IMG/VR virus record: IMGVR_UViG_3300031679_000007 | Span: 1 to 34,966 of that record | Strand: one strand, 5' to 3' | Length of the DNA: 34,966 nucleotides | Origin: a virus | Taxonomy: Duplodnaviria; Caudoviricetes | In this document: positions 2,407 to 31,070 of the stretch, piece by piece | Numbering within the stretch: position 1 is the first letter of the stretch | Layout: the number at the start of each line of letters is the position of its first letter | Notes under the pieces: generated by a model | Databases searched by the model: none | Seen by the model: only the letters and a program-made list of their open reading frames with translations | What the model was told of the DNA's origin: nothing | Translations under genes and position numbers: made by a program

Positions 2407-2848
2407 CCTTGCCGGTGGGTTTGCTCGAGGCTTTGCCCAGTTTGGCGTTCGCCCTGGCTTTGATCTTGGCTCTGGCGGCCGGCGGCGCGTTGCCGATCAT
2501 GCTCAGCGCGGCGCGAGCGTGGTTCTTGTCGTTGACCGGGAAGGAGCGATTCGGGCCGGCGAAGGCGCTGTCGGGCAACGCCTTGCGCTCGGCCGCGGAC
2601 AGGCGACCGCCCTTGCCCACCTTGCGATCGCCACCGCCGCCGCCCACGTTTGGCAGGCTGGGCAGCGCGATGTTGGGCAACGCCATTGACGGAGAGGGCA
2701 GGCCGGCGCGACGGCGCTGCATCGGCGCCTGGCGCAGCGCCATGTTGGCCATGCTCGGCATCTGCATCGTGCTGGCCTTGGCACGCATCGGCGGGCGGAT
2801 ACGGCCGAGCGACGAGAGCTGCGGCTTGGGTGGCTGCGGGCGGCTCAT
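2357..2848 (-). CDS. Basic phage protein with DUF6582-like domain
   Basis: LSAAERKALPDSAFAGPNRSFPVNDKNHARAAL resembles the DUF6582 motif of phage head-region proteins (from recall, not searched). Confidence 0.65.
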   Translation of the reverse strand: MSRPQPPKPQLSSLGRIRPPMRAKASTMQMPSMANMALRQAPMQRRRAGLPSPSMALPNIALPSLPNVGGGGGDRKVGKGGRLSAAERKALPDSAFAGPNRSFPVNDKNHARAALSMIGNAPPAARAKIKARANAKLGKASSKPTGKGGGAGKHPVGCGCGNH

Positions 2849-2896
2849 ACCACCAGCCTGCGACAGCTAGCCTGTCATCACCAAACGAGACGGTCC

Positions 2897-3043
2897 CTAG
2901 CGGCGGGGGCTGAGGTTCAACGCCGCTTTGCGCCGCAGCGCCTCGCGCCGGCGCGCCTTGCACCGAACACAGCGCACCGACAGCTTGTGCCGCAGTCGGA
3001 ATGCGCCGCATTCAGGGCACAGCGGCAACAGATCCCGCTTCAC
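2897..3043 (-). CDS. Small Zn-finger protein
   Basis: GTG overlaps the upstream stop (GTGA); CPEC...CVRC followed by a basic tail. Confidence 0.55.
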   Translation of the reverse strand: MKRDLLPLCPECGAFRLRHKLSVRCVRCKARRREALRRKAALNLSPRR

Positions 3044-3438
3044 TCCTCGAGGAGCGAGTAGCCGCGTTGCTCGAGCGTTTGGAGCATCTGGGCGCACAGG
3101 AAGCGCACGTGCTGCTCGCCGGCCACCTGAGCGTCACGAATCACCTGCAGCACGCCCATACAGGCGCGCAGCGCCTCACCCTCACCGCTCTGCGCGGACT
3201 CGATCGGCTCGATGCGGTCGATCGTGCCCGAACGGTACACGGCGTCACCGATGGTGATGAACGCGGTGTTGTCGAGCGCGAAGCGCGTCTCGCGTGCCCA
3301 GAAGGCCCAGGCGTCCGGGCCATCGCCGAAGACCACCTCGCGCACGTCCTCGTGGCCGCTCGAGTCGACCACCTTGACCCGTCCCCGGCGTAATCCGGAT
3401 TCCGTTTGCGCCGGGATGGCCGGCACACGCTCAATCAC
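3040..3438 (-). CDS. Hypothetical protein
   Basis: GTG 3438 overlaps the TerL stop (GTGA); coding-like codon bias. Confidence 0.6.
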   Translation of the reverse strand: MIERVPAIPAQTESGLRRGRVKVVDSSGHEDVREVVFGDGPDAWAFWARETRFALDNTAFITIGDAVYRSGTIDRIEPIESAQSGEGEALRACMGVLQVIRDAQVAGEQHVRFLCAQMLQTLEQRGYSLLEE

Positions 3439-5648
3439 GCGATCTCCAGGTAGCTCTGGCCTTCCATGCGTCTGGGCATGAGTTGCAGGCGCACCGACTC
3501 CAGCCAGTTGGTGCCCTGGTAGCTGTCGCGCCCGGCGACGTCGACCTGCAGATACGTGCTGGCCTCGATGCCCGACTGCCATAGATGCCTGCGGTGCATC
3601 CAGCAGAAGTACCTGAGCACGTCACAGGCGTGGTCCTGCGTCCTGCGCACGATCAGCTTCGGGTCGACGTAGCTGGTGTCGCGGCGCCTGAGCTTGCGGT
3701 AGCTGATCAGCTCGCGCGCCAGGTTGGGGCAGCGCTCCTTGCTGATGCGGATGCCGCTGCAGTCGCGCAGCGCCTCCAGGTCCTCGCCGCTCAGCGCGGA
3801 ATCGACCAGGCGTTCCTCGAGGTCCATCGCGATCTGCGGGCGTATGCGTTCGGGCACCTCGTCGAGGCTCGCGAAGCCGGCGTCGCGCAGCACGCGCGTC
3901 ATCAGCTCGCGCTCGTACTGCCGCCAGCGCAGCGGGTTGCGGAACGTGTTGTTGACGATCGGCACGCTCGAGTCGAGGTCCGGCTTGCCGGGCACGATCT
4001 CGCCCTTGCGGTTCTCGCTGACGATCGGCGCGGCGGGCCAGTCCTGCTGCGCCCAGCGCATGATCTCGATCGGGTTGGCGCCCTGGTCCAGGTAGATGAC
4101 GCTCACCCAGTTGCGCCACAGGCGCTGGTCCAGCTCGGACGCGACCTCCTCGGCGGTCACGCCGGCGCGATAGAACTCGTCGACCACGTCGACACGATCG
4201 GCGCCGTAGTCCTGGAAGGCGAGCACGCAGTACTCGTTGATGCCGCCCGAAGGGTCAGCCACGCAGATGACGGGTTGCCAGGGATTGAAGGGCAACTCGT
4301 CGTACAGGTGCACGCTCGGCTTGTAGGCGTAGTAGATCCGATCGCGCTCGCCGGTCGGCTTGCCGCCGTAGATGGCTAAAAACGCGGCCGGGTCCCTGGC
4401 GTGCTCGCGCTCGGCGTCCTTGATCGCCTGCGACTCGCGGCCCTGCGGGAAGCGGTAGAAGTTGATCCACGAGGGCGAGTCGAACGTCTCCCAGTTCGGA
4501 TCCTCGTCGATGATCGCCTGCTCGACGCGCTGGTTGAACCAGGATTCGTCGCCCTGCTGGGCGCTCGAGATGATGAGCGCCTTGCCCATCTTGTCGGCCA
4601 GCGTGGGCAGGCACTTCTTGGTCCAGTCCTGTTCGGAGGCGTACTCGGCCTCGTCCAGGATCAGGAAATCGACGCCGGTGCCCGCGGCGCTCAGGTCGCT
4701 CGACAGGCTGATGCCGTGCAGCACCGAGCCGTTCTCCAGCTCGATGTAGCGATTGTCACTGGCGTTGCGCCACAAGCGCGCCGTCTTGCGATAGCCGCGA
4801 TCCCCGAGCTTTTCGGCCAGCACGTTGAAGCAGCGCCCGACCGCGTCGTCGGTCTTGGCCGTGCACCACACCACCGCGCGCTGGCGCACCAGGGCCAACG
4901 CGGCGCCCTCGGCCGCGGCGTACACGCTTTTGCCGCCGCGGCGACCCCAGCGCGCGATGCGAAAGCGCGCTTCGCTCCTGGCCAGCGCTTGCTGCCAGGT
5001 CCAGCGACCGGGCAACTCGTCGCGTGCCCACTGCTCGGTCTCGCGCTGATACACGCGATACGCCTCGTCGCGGTCGATCTCGTCGACGATCTGACCCAGC
5101 TCGCGCAGCTTGAAGGCGACCGTCGAGCCGAGCGCGGCGTCGTCCGGCACGTACAGCCCGCCCGGTACGAAGCCGAGCAACTGGAAGCCGCGAAACACGT
5201 CGGCGCGTGTCCAGGGACGGGACGCGGCGATGCGTCCCTGGACGCGATCCTGCAACTGATCGAGCGGGTTGTTGCCCGAGCGCGAGCTGAGGCGTGTCGC
5301 GTCCAGCGCACCGCGTGAGAGCTGGCCGTACAGCTCGCCCACCACGGCTGAGGTGGTCGTCTGTGGCTGGGGCGGCAGCATCTCGAGCGGCACGTGTTTG
5401 GTCTGCTTCAGGAAGAGCTTGTTGATCTCGCCGGCTTCGGCGTGGCGGGCGCGCTTTTTTCGCTCGCCGCGCTGCTTGTCGTAGCAGTGGCGGCACAGGT
5501 TCTCGTGGCCGACCGAGTTGTGCTTGTTTTGCTTGAACAGGCGGATCGGGCCGTTCTGGCCGCACACGCGGCAGACGCGCACCCCGATGCCTTCGGGGTT
5601 CGCCTCGCGATCCCACTCGATGCGTACCCACGGCCTGCTGACGCCCAT
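3435..5648 (-). CDS. terL: Terminase large subunit with N-terminal Zn-finger extension
   Basis: ATG 5648 in a TGATG overlap. Walker A WGRRGGKS, Walker B FLILDEAE, coupling motif LIISS, nuclease VADPSG and C-terminal DHACDVLRY. The longer start in the ORF track overlaps TerS. Confidence 0.92.
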   Translation of the reverse strand: MGVSRPWVRIEWDREANPEGIGVRVCRVCGQNGPIRLFKQNKHNSVGHENLCRHCYDKQRGERKKRARHAEAGEINKLFLKQTKHVPLEMLPPQPQTTTSAVVGELYGQLSRGALDATRLSSRSGNNPLDQLQDRVQGRIAASRPWTRADVFRGFQLLGFVPGGLYVPDDAALGSTVAFKLRELGQIVDEIDRDEAYRVYQRETEQWARDELPGRWTWQQALARSEARFRIARWGRRGGKSVYAAAEGAALALVRQRAVVWCTAKTDDAVGRCFNVLAEKLGDRGYRKTARLWRNASDNRYIELENGSVLHGISLSSDLSAAGTGVDFLILDEAEYASEQDWTKKCLPTLADKMGKALIISSAQQGDESWFNQRVEQAIIDEDPNWETFDSPSWINFYRFPQGRESQAIKDAEREHARDPAAFLAIYGGKPTGERDRIYYAYKPSVHLYDELPFNPWQPVICVADPSGGINEYCVLAFQDYGADRVDVVDEFYRAGVTAEEVASELDQRLWRNWVSVIYLDQGANPIEIMRWAQQDWPAAPIVSENRKGEIVPGKPDLDSSVPIVNNTFRNPLRWRQYERELMTRVLRDAGFASLDEVPERIRPQIAMDLEERLVDSALSGEDLEALRDCSGIRISKERCPNLARELISYRKLRRRDTSYVDPKLIVRRTQDHACDVLRYFCWMHRRHLWQSGIEASTYLQVDVAGRDSYQGTNWLESVRLQLMPRRMEGQSYLEIA

Positions 5649-6178
5649 CAGGCCGCCTTGCCCTCGAGCTGGGCGCGCACCGCGAGCATGATCCGCAGGA
5701 ACGTCTGGGGGTCCACGAAGGCCTCGACAATGCGCAATGTTTCCACAACCGCGGCATTGACCTCGGTCACGACGATTTCTTGCCGGCGTGCCTCGGTGTA
5801 GCGCTGCGCCTGCTCGATGAGTTTTCTGAGCACTTCGATGGCCTTGAGGTAGGCATTCACGGCCTTCTCGGCGGCGGCCAGCTGCGCCTGGGCTTCGATG
5901 ACGACCTGCTCGGGGTCGGCATCCTCGGCGAGCGCGATCTGGCGGGCGATGATCTGGTCGAGTGAGTCGAGGCCGCGGATGGCGCCGGTGGCCTCCATGC
6001 GCCGCACCTGGACGTACAGCCCAGCCGCCAGGTCGCACAGCAACTCGTACTGCGGGCCGCGGCTGGCGTAGCGCTCGAGCAGCGCATTGACCGTGTCGGT
6101 GTACAGCTGCGCCCACTGGCCGCGCAGACTCGAGGGGGCTGGCACGTTCCAGCGCTTGGGGATGACCAGCTCAGGCAT
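5648..6178 (-). CDS. Probable terminase small subunit
   Basis: Helical/coiled-coil 176-aa protein directly upstream of, and translationally coupled to, TerL. The function is inferred from position. Confidence 0.6.
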   Translation of the reverse strand: MPELVIPKRWNVPAPSSLRGQWAQLYTDTVNALLERYASRGPQYELLCDLAAGLYVQVRRMEATGAIRGLDSLDQIIARQIALAEDADPEQVVIEAQAQLAAAEKAVNAYLKAIEVLRKLIEQAQRYTEARRQEIVVTEVNAAVVETLRIVEAFVDPQTFLRIMLAVRAQLEGKAA

Positions 6179-12013: not shown

Positions 12014-12146
12014 GGGTCTCCGGATTTCAGGTTTCCCGTTTCTTCCGCAGCGGGTCCCCTCAGGAATTTCCGTTTTCCAGTTTCTTTCAAACTGGGTCCC
12101 AGCCAGGAGTTTCAGCAATCTCCTTTAGTTCAAATTGGGTCCCAGC
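12014..12146. repeat. Degenerate ~42-bp tandem repeat with GGGTCCC anchors and short T-tracts
   Basis: GGGTC(T/C)C at 12014, 12052, 12094 and 12137; TTCAAA(C/T)TGGGTCCCAGC occurs twice. Confidence 0.7.
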
Positions 12147-12270
12147 GTGATGCCGGAGCCGCCAGGCGCCCGTCCAACTCGCTCCGCTGACAGGCGCTGG
12201 CACACGCCGAGGCGCTCGTGGAGCTGCTGGCGAGGGGTGGTCGGCGGGATGAGGCCTCAGCTTGACAGAA

Positions 12271-12700: not shown

Positions 12701-13594
12701 TCAGAGCGCCAGCGCCAGCTGCCGAACCTCGGGACGGTAGGTCTTGAGGCTGCGGTCAGTCTTGAAGGTGAAGTCGAAGCGTTCCTCGATCGCGATCAGC
12801 TCGTCGAGCAACTCAGGGTTGTGCTGGGCACCGACCTTGAGGTCGTTGTCACCAGCCAGGACGCAGAACTGGCAGCTCAGGCGTTCGTTGCCGAACACGT
12901 AGGCTGGGTGAAGCGACCAGCCCACCAGCGCTTCGGCGGCGCGGCCGGCCTGGTATACGGCGCGTCGCATGCGCAGATCCCGCAGCGTGTGGCCACAGGC
13001 CTCGAACACCTCGGCGGTCGTCCACTCCAGCAGCGGGTGCCAGCTCGTCGCCGTGCGCTTGGTGTTGTGGATCTGGCGGTACTCCCAGCTCGCCTTCTTG
13101 GCGCGGGCTGGGGATTCCTCGGCACGGATGCCGACCGCACACACCACGTTGGTGTAGCGGCGCAGGTACTTGTCGATGGGGTTGCGCTTGAGTTCAGCGG
13201 TGCAAAACCGATGCTGGCTGCTGCTCCATGGCCGACCACTGCCGCTCTCGGCCAACGTGTCCTCGCCGCGCTGAATCCAGCGGTCGATCATGTCCCAGCC
13301 GCGACCCTGGTCGTCGCGTCGCACGACGACCAGCGGGATGCCGGCATCGTCGGCGATCTTCTTGACGTGACCTGGCGTCTGTCGCCACTCGATGCGACCC
13401 AGGTCGGCATGGATGGCGAATACCTCGCCCTTCCAGCCGCGCTGGCGGTGTAGCGCGACAAGCGCCTCGGTCATCGCTTGCGAGTCCTTGCCGCCGCTGA
13501 TGCTGATGGCCAGCACCGCGCCGGCTTCGAGCTGGGCTTCGATGGCAGCGGGCAGTGTGACGCTGCGCGCTGAAAGCTCCTTGTTGACGTTCAC
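12701..13594 (-). CDS. Phosphoadenosine phosphosulfate (PAPS) reductase family protein
   Basis: PP-loop ISISGGKDS plus IHADLG, RFCTAELK, VGIRAEESPARA, WHPLLEWT and HPAY..GNERLSCQFC. Confidence 0.88.
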   Translation of the reverse strand: MNVNKELSARSVTLPAAIEAQLEAGAVLAISISGGKDSQAMTEALVALHRQRGWKGEVFAIHADLGRIEWRQTPGHVKKIADDAGIPLVVVRRDDQGRGWDMIDRWIQRGEDTLAESGSGRPWSSSQHRFCTAELKRNPIDKYLRRYTNVVCAVGIRAEESPARAKKASWEYRQIHNTKRTATSWHPLLEWTTAEVFEACGHTLRDLRMRRAVYQAGRAAEALVGWSLHPAYVFGNERLSCQFCVLAGDNDLKVGAQHNPELLDELIAIEERFDFTFKTDRSLKTYRPEVRQLALAL

Positions 13595-13607
13595 AAGACG
13601 GATGATA
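13577..13607 (-). promoter_or_regulatory. Early promoter module A
   Basis: TATCAT-N7-GTGAACGTCAACAAGGAG on the minus strand. Confidence 0.65.
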
Positions 13608-13689
13608 TGCAAAAGCCCCGCATTGCATAGGCAAATGCAGGGCAAATCGCGATGAGTGCGTAGGTTGTGGGGTGGTGCTGCCTAGGCGG

Positions 13690-24181: not shown

Positions 24182-25021
24182 TTACGGATTAGCCTCCAGC
24201 GTGAATCCCGGTGCAGCCGGTGGGAATGCCGTAAACGAGCCAGCGGACGGCGTGATGAACACGACGAATGAGCCGGTGTCCTGGCTGTACAGGGCTGGCT
24301 GATAGTTGTTCCACGTGCCCACTTTCGTAAACGTCGGAGTCACGGGCTTGATCGCCCGATGCGCAAACGTGAAATAGGTATTGGTCGAAGTGGCTTGATA
24401 GCCGCTGAGAACCACCGCCGAGCCGTACGTTTCGTAATACCGCAGACACCGCGCTAAATCGTCCGCCGGATGCAGCGGCACGTAGTTGGCGGGCTGCGAG
24501 CCGACCACCAGACAGGCGTTGTCGATGTAGGCGGTGCAATTCTGCTGAAAGTCCACGACCACGTAAAGCGACGTGATACCCGTCGCCAATGTCCGAGTGA
24601 ACGTCAACGTCTGATACGTGCCATCACCGGTGTGATATGCCCCGTACGTGTAGGCGCCGTCATACATACCAATGTGAACCGCATTGGCGGTTGACGTGCG
24701 TACGCGGATGCTCAGGGATACCGTTCGACCGCGCAGGTTCAGATAGTCTTCTACTTTCTGTTGCACCTGCGTTGAGCCAGCCACAACAGCCGTGATACTG
24801 GCGGCGAAGCAACTTCCACTGCCGGTGTCCTGGTTGGTCGAGTCTTTCGAGACACTCATGCCGCCCGAGTTGAACAGCGACCACCGATCTGCCGCATACG
24901 CCTGGTTCGCCGTGAACGGGCCGTTGCCTCTCTGCCACCATTCGAAACCAGGATTGACGAGCAGATTGGCTCTGGCGACGTCGGGGCCGAGTTGGCGATT
25001 ATCGAGCAGAGGGGTGGACAA
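24182..25021 (-). CDS. Receptor-binding/tail protein with carbohydrate-binding-module-like domain (paralog 2)
   Basis: NLLVNPGFEWWQRG...YAADRW and HPADDLARCLRYYE motifs; TTG start. Confidence 0.75.
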   Translation of the reverse strand: MSTPLLDNRQLGPDVARANLLVNPGFEWWQRGNGPFTANQAYAADRWSLFNSGGMSVSKDSTNQDTGSGSCFAASITAVVAGSTQVQQKVEDYLNLRGRTVSLSIRVRTSTANAVHIGMYDGAYTYGAYHTGDGTYQTLTFTRTLATGITSLYVVVDFQQNCTAYIDNACLVVGSQPANYVPLHPADDLARCLRYYETYGSAVVLSGYQATSTNTYFTFAHRAIKPVTPTFTKVGTWNNYQPALYSQDTGSFVVFITPSAGSFTAFPPAAPGFTLEANP

Positions 25022-25023
25022 GG

Positions 25024-25875
25024 CTACGGGTTGGCCTCCGCAGTCCAGGTGGTGTACAGCGCGCTCGTTCCTACCGCAGTCGTTAAGCCGTAGAGATCCG
25101 TGCCGACGGTATTCGTGAAAGCTGAGTTAATGGTTCCGATATTGGTGGAACCCGTATCAGCCAGAGTGATGGTCGGACTCACGGCTTTGACGGCTTTGAA
25201 CGACTGCCACCACTCCAACTGACTCCCGGCTACGCCGTATTGAGCCGCACGAAGTTGCTGCTTCTCGTAATACCGCAGACACCGCGCCAGGTCGTCGGCG
25301 GGATGCATGGGCACGTAATCCGCTGGCGTCGAGCCCACCACCAGCATGGCGTTGTCGAGATAGGCCGTGCAGGACGCGGCAAAGCTTGCCCCAGCCCAGA
25401 TCTGAGATGGAGCTACAGGAACAGCAACCGAAACCGACAACGTTTCGAAATTGCCGCTGCCTGAGTGGTATGCCCCGTACGTCCAGGCAGTGCTGTTGTA
25501 GATGCCGAGACGTACGGCATTTGCCGTGGAGCAACGCACACGCATAGAAAGCGTGAGCGTCTTGCCGCCCAGTTGGTAGGTGTACGTCGTCTCCACCAGA
25601 TACTGATGGAGAATCGTGCCGCCGCCACCAGTGCCGAGCGTGAAGGTTACCGCTGCTTGAACACTTGATCCGGCATCGAGACTGGTCGAACTAGCGCTCA
25701 CGCTGATGGTGTCCGTGCCGATGATGCTGGTCCGCCAGCGATCAGCGGTATACACCCCATTGGCCGTGAACGGGCCGTTGCCTCTCTGCCAGATCTCGAA
25801 GCCCCCGTTGGTGAGCAGGTTGGGGCGCTGCGCGCTCGGCCCGAGGTTGGGGTTGGCGACCTGCTCGAAGGTCAT
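25024..25875 (-). CDS. Receptor-binding/tail protein with carbohydrate-binding-module-like domain (paralog 1)
   Basis: NLLTNGGFEIWQRG...YTADRW and HPADDLARCLRYYE motifs; the same EANP terminus as paralog 2. Confidence 0.75.
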   Translation of the reverse strand: MTFEQVANPNLGPSAQRPNLLTNGGFEIWQRGNGPFTANGVYTADRWRTSIIGTDTISVSASSTSLDAGSSVQAAVTFTLGTGGGGTILHQYLVETTYTYQLGGKTLTLSMRVRCSTANAVRLGIYNSTAWTYGAYHSGSGNFETLSVSVAVPVAPSQIWAGASFAASCTAYLDNAMLVVGSTPADYVPMHPADDLARCLRYYEKQQLRAAQYGVAGSQLEWWQSFKAVKAVSPTITLADTGSTNIGTINSAFTNTVGTDLYGLTTAVGTSALYTTWTAEANP

Positions 25876-26225
25876 ATTCCCCGCAACTGGGAGGGTGCGT
25901 GCTCCTCGTCCCACTCCTGTTGGGTAATCTGCACCTGTTCGCGCGGGAGAAGGCCGCTCTGCTGGTCACGGATATCTTGCTTGCGTTGCGGCGTGGTCGT
26001 CCCGTCCTGAAATTCGGCCGCGTATTCGGCGTCGGTCTTGTCGCGCATGGCGACGTGCGCGTCTACTACCGCTTGCGCCGCTGGCGGTAAATCGACGGGC
26101 TGCCCCTGCGCGTCGTAGGTGAAGATGGTGCTCGTGCTACCCGCGTAGGTCGCGCCGAGCGCCGTGACGCCAAGCTCGCTCTGGAGTTGATACAGGTTGA
26201 CTGGCCTTGAGGTGGTGACGCTCAT
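25872..26225 (-). CDS. Hypothetical protein, probable tail-fibre assembly factor
   Basis: ATGA-coupled directly after the tail fibre. Confidence 0.6.
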   Translation of the reverse strand: MSVTTSRPVNLYQLQSELGVTALGATYAGSTSTIFTYDAQGQPVDLPPAAQAVVDAHVAMRDKTDAEYAAEFQDGTTTPQRKQDIRDQQSGLLPREQVQITQQEWDEEHAPSQLRGI

Positions 26226-29515: not shown

Positions 29516-29956
29516 TTACTCCGCGGCCTGGAGCGCTTCTTCGCGTTCGATGATCTGGCGGTGATCCCGCCTGGCGTGACCCGCCAGATGGAACTTGTCC
29601 ACGAAGTCTTTGCCGCAATGCATGCACTGCCACTCGATCGGCTGCAGCTCGGCGAAGCCGTCCTCGACAACCAGGTGCCACCGCGGCACCTTCTTGCAGT
29701 CGAAGCGCACGTTGCCGCCGCACGGGAACTTGCCGGTCAGGAACTGCTCCAGGACGTCGGTCTCGTACGCGCTCAGACAGATGACCACCTCACCCGCCGC
29801 GATCGCGGCCTTGATGGCCTCCCAGTCCGACTCGCGCCGCTGACCGACGTTGTTGACGATCTGCACCGCGCCGAACTGGCGCATCGCCGAGCGTCCCGGA
29901 ATCAGGATCTCCCGCCGCGACTGGCCATTCGTACTATAAATTGACAAGATTGGCAC
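29516..29956 (-). CDS. Late protein with C-terminal C2H2 Zn finger; its 5' end is supplied by the HNH insertion
   Basis: GTG 29956 preceded by AGGGA; MPILSIYSTNGQSRREILIPGRSAMRQF...CMHCGKDFVDKFHLAGHARRDH. Confidence 0.7.
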   Translation of the reverse strand: MPILSIYSTNGQSRREILIPGRSAMRQFGAVQIVNNVGQRRESDWEAIKAAIAAGEVVICLSAYETDVLEQFLTGKFPCGGNVRFDCKKVPRWHLVVEDGFAELQPIEWQCMHCGKDFVDKFHLAGHARRDHRQIIEREEALQAAE

Positions 29957-30600
29957 GGCAGAAGTCCCTATCCGAACGCTTCTGGGCCAAGGTCGAGAAG
30001 ACCGATGGCTGTTGGCTTTGGACCGGTGCCACCGTGGGCGACACCATTCGCTATGGGAATATCTCGCGCGGCCGAAGAGGCGAGGGCTACGTCCGCGCCC
30101 ACAAGCTTTCGTGGGAGCTTCACTTTGGCCCGATAGCGCCGGGCTTGGCGGTCCTTCACCATTGCGACATTGGACTTTGCGTCCGACCGGACCATCTCTT
30201 CCTTGGCACACAGTTCGAAAATGTCCAAGACATGATCGCCAAAGGTCGCGACCGGCGATGGCAACCCAAAGGCACGGCCAACGGAAGCGCGCGTCTTACG
30301 GACGACGAGATACGAGCAATTCGGCAGCACTTTCACGACGGGCTTTTGCAGCGCGACATAGCCGCCATTTACGGGCTCAGTGAGGGTTACATCAGCTCCA
30401 TCGTGCGCGGGCGAAACTGGACGCATATCGAAGGCGCGGCGCCGATCGTTGTCTCCACACATTGCGGGCGAGGCCACCTCTTGGATGACGCGAACACCCG
30501 ACTCTCGCGAGGGCGACGGGTCTGCCGTGCATGCGAACGAGAGAAGTCGCGTCGGCTCTATCACCAGCGGCGCGGCTGAGTAGACGCTGAGGAGCGGCAT
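29933..30600. mobile_element. HNH cassette bounded by a duplicated, recoded 8-codon gene start
   Basis: On the minus strand, MPLLSVYS at 30600-30577 and (M/V)PILSIYS at 29956-29933 bracket the HNH gene. Confidence 0.75.
29941..30579 (+). CDS. Free-standing HNH homing endonuclease (HNH domain + HTH + Zn finger)
   Basis: RFWAKV..CWLWTG..RAHKLSW..VLHHCD..CVRPDHLFLGT..EN..DM; HTH LLQRDIAAIYGLSEGYISSIV; THCGRGH...CRAC. It is the only convincing + strand gene in the late block. Confidence 0.92.
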   Translation: MTRLARQKSLSERFWAKVEKTDGCWLWTGATVGDTIRYGNISRGRRGEGYVRAHKLSWELHFGPIAPGLAVLHHCDIGLCVRPDHLFLGTQFENVQDMIAKGRDRRWQPKGTANGSARLTDDEIRAIRQHFHDGLLQRDIAAIYGLSEGYISSIVRGRNWTHIEGAAPIVVSTHCGRGHLLDDANTRLSRGRRVCRACEREKSRRLYHQRRG

Positions 30601-31070
30601 TACTTGCGCTTGCCCCCACCGATCTTCTTGCCGGCGCTGTTGATCCCTGGACGGTTGTTGCCCTTCGGGTCGCGCTGGCCACCCTTGACCGTCGTGCCCC
30701 TGCCGCGACCCCCGCCGACGCCTGGCACGATGGGTCCTGGTGTAGGCGGCCCAGCTGCCGGTGGAGCTGGTCGCGGGGCAGGCCTGCGACGCGGACGCGG
30801 AGGACGCACGCCAGGCGGCATGGGCAGCGGCGCTGGCGCTGGCGGCGGAGCCGCGCCGGCTGGCGGCGTGATCTGTGGCATAGCGCCGGCACCCATCGGC
30901 GCGGGTGGCATGCCCTGACCCTTGCCGACGCGGCGATTCCCACCTCCCTTGCCGGTGTCGGTGGGGAGCCCGCGGCGACGGTCAATCGCGTTGTCGCGCG
31001 GCGAGCCTTCTTTGATACCGCGCTTCTTGTCCCAGGCGGCGTCTGACGCTTCGGTCCACTTCTTAGCCAT
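30600..31070 (-). CDS. Basic Pro/Gly-rich protein
   Basis: MAKKWTEASDAAWDKKRGIKEGS N-terminus, low-complexity remainder; stop TAA overlaps the next ATG. Confidence 0.65.
   Translation of the reverse strand: MAKKWTEASDAAWDKKRGIKEGSPRDNAIDRRRGLPTDTGKGGGNRRVGKGQGMPPAPMGAGAMPQITPPAGAAPPPAPAPLPMPPGVRPPRPRRRPAPRPAPPAAGPPTPGPIVPGVGGGRGRGTTVKGGQRDPKGNNRPGINSAGKKIGGGKRK

Follow-up and report, generated by a model that had tools for sequence, protein, structure and literature searches.

The window analysed here is a linear virus record of 34,966 nt that is about 55% complete. Internal to this record, within a minus-strand late region, an HNH nuclease gene lies antisense across the 5' end of a gene for a zinc-finger-like protein, here called the host gene. 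Its first eight codons occur twice, as an old and a replacement head. The features of the locus and its flanks are as follows, with the major capsid and glycosyltransferase genes assigned from the ORF list and Pfam/PHROG matches:

34458-33223, minus strand: major capsid gene
32894-31389, minus strand: glycosyltransferase gene, followed by small ORFs
30600..31070, minus strand: upstream Pro/Gly-rich gene of 156 aa, whose TAA overlaps the old ATG (TAATG)
30577..30600, minus strand: old head, codons 1-8 (MPLLSVYS), with the original coupled ATG; profile score 32.7, rank 1/59,636
29968..30600, minus strand: stop-free bridge frame of 210 codons, starting at the old ATG and codon-aligned antisense to the HNH gene
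29950..30579, plus strand: HNH (beta-beta-alpha-metal) nuclease with helix-turn-helix and C-terminal Cys/His motif; the longest ORF runs from TTG 29941
29965..29969, minus strand: AGGGA, a weak Shine-Dalgarno-like site ahead of the new start and within codons 9-10 of the HNH gene; -4.6 kcal/mol
29933..29956, minus strand: replacement head, codons 1-8 ((M)PILSIYS), with a GTG start; profile score 32.1, rank 2/59,636
29932..29952, plus strand: AT-rich patch, candidate -10-only promoter for the HNH gene, with no ribosome site
29516..29932, minus strand: host gene body, codons 9-146, an alpha/beta domain with a C2H2-like zinc finger (zf-C2H2 E 0.0019, below the cut-off)
29509-26222, minus strand: Gly/Ala/Thr-rich ORF of 1095 aa with a weak tail-fibre match

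Near-identical DNA of the window was present in 24 soil runs among the matches listed, and no RNA run was among these listed holders. Contigs from other public runs cross both junctions with 0-1 differences (29933: X10 record 1; 30577: X10 record 3 and X23 record 29), indicating that the locus is not misassembled. Furthermore, a second assembly (L082) is identical to the window over 10,438 nt.

Re-reading of the sequence confirmed the layout described in the initial annotation, with the coupled TAATG at 30600, both heads and the AGGGA at the positions it had given. The AGGGA (29969-29965) lies 8 nt ahead of GTG 29956, from where the replacement head, offset by 644 nt from the old one, runs in frame into a 146-aa ORF ending at 29516. 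All eight codons are changed between the two heads, 10/24 nt are identical and both serines of the replacement head use the other codon box. The recoding is not purely synonymous and includes the conservative changes L3I and V6I. The old head retains ordinary codons. The codon adaptation of the replacement head is low (0.26) and within the range of other ORF starts in the phage (0.20-0.65). The 21 nt from 29932 to 29952 have a GC content of 0.24, which places them in the lowest 0.02% of 21-mers in the window, and the opposite strand of the replacement head carries the HNH start and its upstream leader.

To score the heads against the host protein family, we compared the N-termini of 10 homologues with the 59,636 stop-free 8-mers of the window. 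The two heads reached 32.7 and 32.1, the next 8-mer of the window 22.0, and the top score among about 1.0 million background positions was 26.3. An unanchored flank-against-flank scan gave the head pair a score of 32, only at about the 90th percentile of HNH loci, and the peptide echo alone is therefore weak evidence. This unanchored scan was dropped as too noisy, and the anchored and profile tests were used instead.

The family itself supports a start at the heads. Nine out of nine close homologues start with MP-x-[LF]-x-V-Y and six distant members (P0141-P0146) retain the N-terminal segment, as expected from the prediction that homologues begin with MP-x-L-x-V-Y and not with the downstream MRQF. 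The model of the host protein has a pLDDT of 93, with residues 3-8 forming the predicted strand beta-1, and a fold search returned no clear structural match (best Z 2.9; Foldseek nothing at E 0.001). Relatives of the protein were absent from the searched viral contigs, genome contigs and annotated phages. In metagenomes, three of seven loci (L083, L085 and L086) contain an HNH-free junction, in which the same upstream gene is joined by TGATG to an uninterrupted host gene. The other four comprise two copies of the window phage, one locus cut by a contig edge and one spurious match. This agrees with the uninterrupted, stop-start coupled allele that had been predicted for HNH-minus relatives. As the three host proteins are only 53-66% identical to that of the window, they give the ancestral layout and not the exact crossover. 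The exact junction is uncertain by a few nucleotides because these empty alleles come from distant relatives and not from a sibling phage, and the same start peptide results whether the cut falls after nt 18-21, 23 or 24 of the old head. The joined empty form was not seen in contigs of four runs, of which 35-63% each was covered.

The nuclease gene itself is intact. Its ORF matches Pfam HNH_3 (E 1.8e-10, above the cut-off) and PHROG 826 (E 1.5e-35), and it is the only HNH_3 match in this roughly half-complete record; a sequence search against solved structures gave no match. The residues H73, C75, C80, H85 and N94, which we take to be metal-binding or catalytic after the His-Cys-box enzymes, are invariant in 8/8 aligned relatives. 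The stop codon TGA (30577-30579) is the reverse complement of codon 8 of the old head. A relative with 80% identity, P0013 (protein only), begins at the equivalent of TTG 29950 and shares the same C-terminal end, making TTG 29950 the likelier start. The HNH start thus still falls within the replacement head, as the initial annotation had placed it, most likely at 29950 and not at 29941. P0013, from a 4.1-kb contig, is possibly a second occupied allele and was not found in the viral contigs searched. The 212-aa protein as read from 29941 does not occur in the protein collection.

A ribosome site is absent at either TTG (anti-SD pairing of -1.5 and +0.5 kcal/mol). On the plus strand, the AT-rich patch holds three overlapping -10-like hexamers (TACTAT 29932-37, TATAAA 29935-40 and TAAATT 29937-42). 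A sigma-70 scan of the locus returned 0 two-box promoter sites and no -35 box at the patch. Judging from these motifs, the HNH gene may use a -10-only promoter with a very short leader. Pfam, Rfam and fold tests were all negative for a ribozyme, an intein or a transposase, in line with the first description of the insert. There were 0 Rfam matches at E up to 1 and the fold z was 0.17. An intein signal is absent: the length of 644 nt is not divisible by 3, the frame on the host strand ends at 29968, and no Hint match was obtained. A transposase signal was not found at the locus.

A feature that goes beyond the initial annotation is the stop-free host-strand frame, which runs from the old start as far as the new ribosome site. 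Its only stop, a TAG, overlaps the new AGGGA and is located 11 nt before GTG 29956. The bridge peptide gave no Pfam match below E 0.077 and no PHROG match.

Seen at the locus are this layout, a host-strand frame free of stops and intact nuclease motifs, and relatives carry the empty allele. Reading from the sequence, we consider it reasonably probable that it is a splice-free homing cassette inserted after codon 8, which consists of the antisense HNH gene, the bridge frame, a ribosome site and a variant head. During co-infection, the HNH protein would nick or cut the uninterrupted allele near codons 5-12, within a small predicted target of about codons 1-15. Repair would then copy the cassette, using the upstream gene with the old head and the gene body as homology arms, and the host gene would be restored by joining the replacement head to codon 9 onward. 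An identical head would rebuild the target; for a cut close to codon 8, one therefore expects the DNA to diverge while the peptide is kept. Exchange of a gene end for a resistant allele is the established logic of the yeast WHO elements, according to the accessible part of the source (PMC7282813).

On the side of translation, ribosomes would initiate at the old coupled ATG and proceed through the 210 codons of the bridge. After terminating within the new ribosome site, they would begin again at GTG 29956, so that coupling would be preserved and polarity avoided. The AT-rich replacement head may double on the other strand as the -10 box and the near-leaderless TTG start of the HNH gene. Most likely, this head would have been brought in together with the nuclease, from a phage allele that had diverged, and would have become AT-rich by later drift. 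The initial annotation had called it a recoded copy; the sister locus L126 suggests an imported allele and not recoding in place. In this way a selfish gene likely spreads without splicing and leaves the operon unharmed.

To learn whether the arrangement recurs, we surveyed 114 testable HNH clusters by start-anchored comparison with a score cut-off of 24. Duplicated heads scoring at least 24 were found in 11 clusters compared to 1.2 expected from cross-locus pairs, and some of the 11 look like chance. Convincing on inspection were L002 and L126 with an antisense HNH gene and L018, L042, L164 and L233 with a sense one; L018 and L042 scored below 24 and were counted by inspection. Seven further loci that had been examined for a possible head duplication (L008, L063, L091, L023, L113, L236 and L181) were left out of the count.

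In L002 (3483-2797, minus strand), the old head VADCFQGVAL is followed by an antisense HNH gene and the new start VTEDCFRGVAI. A 229-codon bridge overlaps this new start (GTGA overlap), and the HNH stop is the complement of an old-head codon, as in the window. For the downstream gene of L002, no relative was found except itself. In L126 (1352-400, minus strand), the antisense HNH gene lies between the old head MNRASATSLL and the new head MDRNSAVNLL. Relatives of this gene start with the first eight residues of the old head in 5/8 cases and share 24/36 nt with the old head compared to 16 with the new one, and the HNH gene is absent in all seven relatives with 1,200 nt upstream. As HNH-free relatives match the old head, it would belong to the resident gene, and the new head looks imported. 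In the sense version (L018:2986-3453, L164:2468-3049, L233:2369-2935 and L042:2926-3441, plus strand), the HNH ORF opens with the old head of the gene that follows it, and that gene starts again from a variant head. The recurrence in other phages indicates that the anatomy represents a class and not a one-off. A separate locus, L021 (around 2840-3470, minus strand), has an antisense HNH gene, an open host-strand frame and what appears to be a duplicate 3' end (LKYQPI-stop and LSMQPI-stop).

The pattern in L126 is predicted by homing with a variant end and would also be left by a single recombination. The insert might be a recombination scar, for which an ordinary free-standing HNH gene arrived a single time and carried along part of the allele of a related phage. 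The duplicated head would then be a by-product, and the nuclease would cut elsewhere or be no longer mobile. The imported look of the new head in L126 fits this explanation, as do the low frequency of duplicated heads (only about 1 in 10 related HNH genes) and the fact that empty alleles are known from distant relatives only. Flank co-conversion and transposition-like insertions are described for T4-type nucleases in the accessible text of a review of these enzymes (PMC2988022). Furthermore, free-standing T4 nucleases often cut away from their own location, as stated in the available part of another source (PMC12724721), and the target of the nuclease therefore need not be the head of the host gene. 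In contrast, a single event does not account well for two heads that share 10/24 nt yet keep the peptide, the second of them in the most AT-rich class of patches, which suggests selection, while the old head still has ordinary codons. The catalytic residues and the ORF of the HNH gene are intact, and L002 shows the same close fit between the stop and start of the HNH gene, the bridge stop and the ribosome site. On balance, we regard a one-time arrival as unlikely, though as an explanation to be taken seriously, and favour the homing cassette.

To see whether the bridge frame is a general property of such inserts, we collected 252 loci, 246 of which had a usable HNH match, and dropped 34 (28 with short flanks, 6 short or broken). 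The remaining 212 loci formed 176 clusters at 70% identity, and the window was excluded from the counts. Orientation was assigned by a simple amino-acid score of the flanks, which left 43 clusters as mixed. At the window locus alone, the open frame is only mildly unlikely (p 0.03-0.09). Across the HNH core, the host-strand frame was open in 28/50 clusters antisense to both flanks, 14/82 sense and 12/43 mixed clusters (antisense versus sense: p 6e-6), and the loci fetched later gave the same contrast by themselves (22/38 versus 8/48, p 9e-5). The effect was found at a GC content up to 0.60 (21/38 antisense versus 5/60 sense); above 0.60, the class that contains the window with its HNH core GC of 0.62, the difference was not significant (7/12 versus 9/22, p 0.48). 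An estimate of chance openness (7/31 GC-matched HNH genes open) was revised after orientation had been taken into account. On a weak tree of 133 rows, orientation switches 33 times, and a pair test corrected for ancestry contained two independent pairs on supported branches, an earlier tree being quick and poorly supported.

The start of the open frames lies within 15 nt of the upstream stop in 23 of the 28 cases (20/56 for other frames), a protein-like start is located at -15 to +20 of the bridge stop in 18/28 (101/401 for other stops), and exact -1/-4 overlaps occur at 7/28 bridge stops compared to 38/401 control stops. These data bear on a second alternative, in which the antisense frame of 210 codons is a genuine overlapping gene that encodes, for example, a nuclease inhibitor, with the peptide and not the openness under selection. 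The coupled ATG, the enrichment of open frames in antisense inserts and the fact that gene callers report the bridge frame as a protein, which is on record for 24 contigs, would agree with such a gene. It is nevertheless very unlikely, since the bridge peptide has no family match in Pfam or PHROG, the open frame is not always the same one (frame 2 in 3/28) and the frame ends vary widely in position, yet sit at host stops and starts. The bridge as a passage for ribosomes within the homing cassette remains the preferred reading.

Even less likely is a host gene that is translated from the internal ATG 29884 (MRQF) or silent, with a vestigial second head. Gene callers chose MRQF on 35 contigs (P0133), and the upstream GTG has a weak ribosome site; the site at MRQF, however, is no stronger (-4.0). 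All close homologues conserve residues 1-24, which make up two strands of the modelled fold, and the second head keeps its peptide through 14 base changes. The model of the MRQF-truncated protein has a pLDDT of 41, which was obtained without an alignment and is no fair comparison with the full-length model. Scarcely credible, finally, is that the insert escaped recognition as an intron or ribosomal-bypass element and is taken out of the RNA: the family start is restored in several registers when 644 nt are removed, and one register puts a G at the insert end, but this register has C at the exon end, where U is the rule for group I introns, the Rfam and fold results given above are negative, the interval is filled by an antisense ORF and splicing would leave the second head needless.

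Compared with known systems, the homing cassette is best read as a phage, 5'-end, antisense counterpart of the yeast WHO elements. The initial annotation had named the inserts in fungal mitochondrial atp6/atp9 as the nearest precedent, and the WHO elements are closer. In the accessible parts of the WHO papers, the nuclease gene of the FBA1 element lies inside a coding sequence with no splicing needed (PMC7282813; bioRxiv 10.64898/2026.08.13.744650), and the host gene is restored with a variant copy of one end while the old end is left as a fragment (PMC7282813). The WHO nucleases are LAGLIDADG enzymes with a zinc finger, related to HO, and these eukaryotic elements replace the 3' half (PMC7282813). 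They form tandem clusters, and cleavage as well as resistance have been demonstrated there (PMC7282813; bioRxiv 10.64898/2026.08.13.744650). Restoration of a gene end is found at the phage locus, at the 5' and not the 3' end; a LAGLIDADG nuclease, FBA1 and clusters are not. Unlike WHO, the phage insert carries an HNH gene in antisense, replaces eight codons only, needs a new start and ribosome site, contains a bridge frame and shows no tandem cluster in the record. The available text of the preprint calls this replacement mode rare and unique to WHO (bioRxiv 10.64898/2026.08.13.744650).

Fungal mitochondrial inserts in atp6, cox2 and rps3 likewise place an endonuclease gene between an old and a new, possibly foreign, gene end; they differ in affecting 3' ends, in their GIY-YIG or LAGLIDADG enzymes and in residing in organelle genomes, and the accessible part of the source describes no antisense 5' case (PMC4019555). 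With the free-standing homing endonucleases of phages (T4 mob/seg), the insert shares an intron-less HNH gene in an operon with overlapping host signals (PMC2988022). In keeping with a homing gene of this kind, its nuclease domain is intact, it does not lie in an intron or intein, and it is absent from the same site in distant relatives. According to the portion available, segD is antisense like the HNH gene of the window but sits between genes, whereas mobA and Aeh1 mobE lie inside coding sequences and leave two polypeptides that reassemble; a replacement head or a stop-free bridge is not described there for mobA, mobE or segD (PMC2988022).

The HNH inserts of ShiLan type in phage methylases are also neither introns nor inteins and keep the host frame free of stops (PMC11855218). 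They lie on the same strand, and the host frame continues across the insert into the remainder of the host protein (PMC11855218). In contrast, the insert in the window is on the opposite strand, its bridge stops before the gene body and the host gene restarts from the new head. The available text mentions no antisense or reverse orientation and no duplication for the ShiLan type (PMC11855218). Ambigrammatic narnaviruses, as far as the accessible portion goes, share a stop-free frame opposite a functional gene, of which translation itself may be the function; they differ as RNA viruses with a whole-genome reverse ORF and with no operon coupling or homing (PMC8316113). The design also parallels engineered home-and-rescue drives. 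Within the literature covered, which mostly excluded subscription papers and left out supplements, we found no 5'-end replacement in a phage and no bridge frame over an antisense nuclease.

End replacement is described as a rare solution, the third by which a homing gene can leave its host unharmed, and is known from 3' ends in yeast and fungal mitochondria. If the homing reading is true, a 5' antisense version in phages, present in about one tenth of a single HNH family, would turn end replacement into a common strategy and would explain how nuclease genes come to sit inside tightly coupled operons. A selected stop-free antisense frame would be a simple form of dual coding. The broadest version of the idea, which we offer tentatively and hold to be somewhat short of probable, is a widespread phage class of splice-free homing elements corresponding to WHO, in whose antisense form 24 bp serve as replacement N-terminus of the host protein, nuclease promoter and start, and immunity allele. 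Three codons would be avoided in the nuclease gene, so that ribosomes can pass over it on the other strand and restart the host gene. For annotation, the locus is misleading, as the bridge frame is called as a gene and the host protein is called in truncated form.

Elsewhere in the window, the terminase large subunit (3435-6116, minus strand) carries an N-terminal Cys-rich segment with weak endonuclease VII/HNH matches (ORF residues 163-279), and its true start is probably near residue 158. An AT-rich motif ending in TGGGTCCCAGC occurs at 12073-12150 in two copies with a spacing of about 43 nt, a possible operator or origin repeat. The region 24182-25914 (minus strand) contains two tandem paralogous tail-fibre-like ORFs (PHROG 4492), and a gene of the PAPS-reductase family (PHROG 424) is located at 12701-13645 (minus strand).
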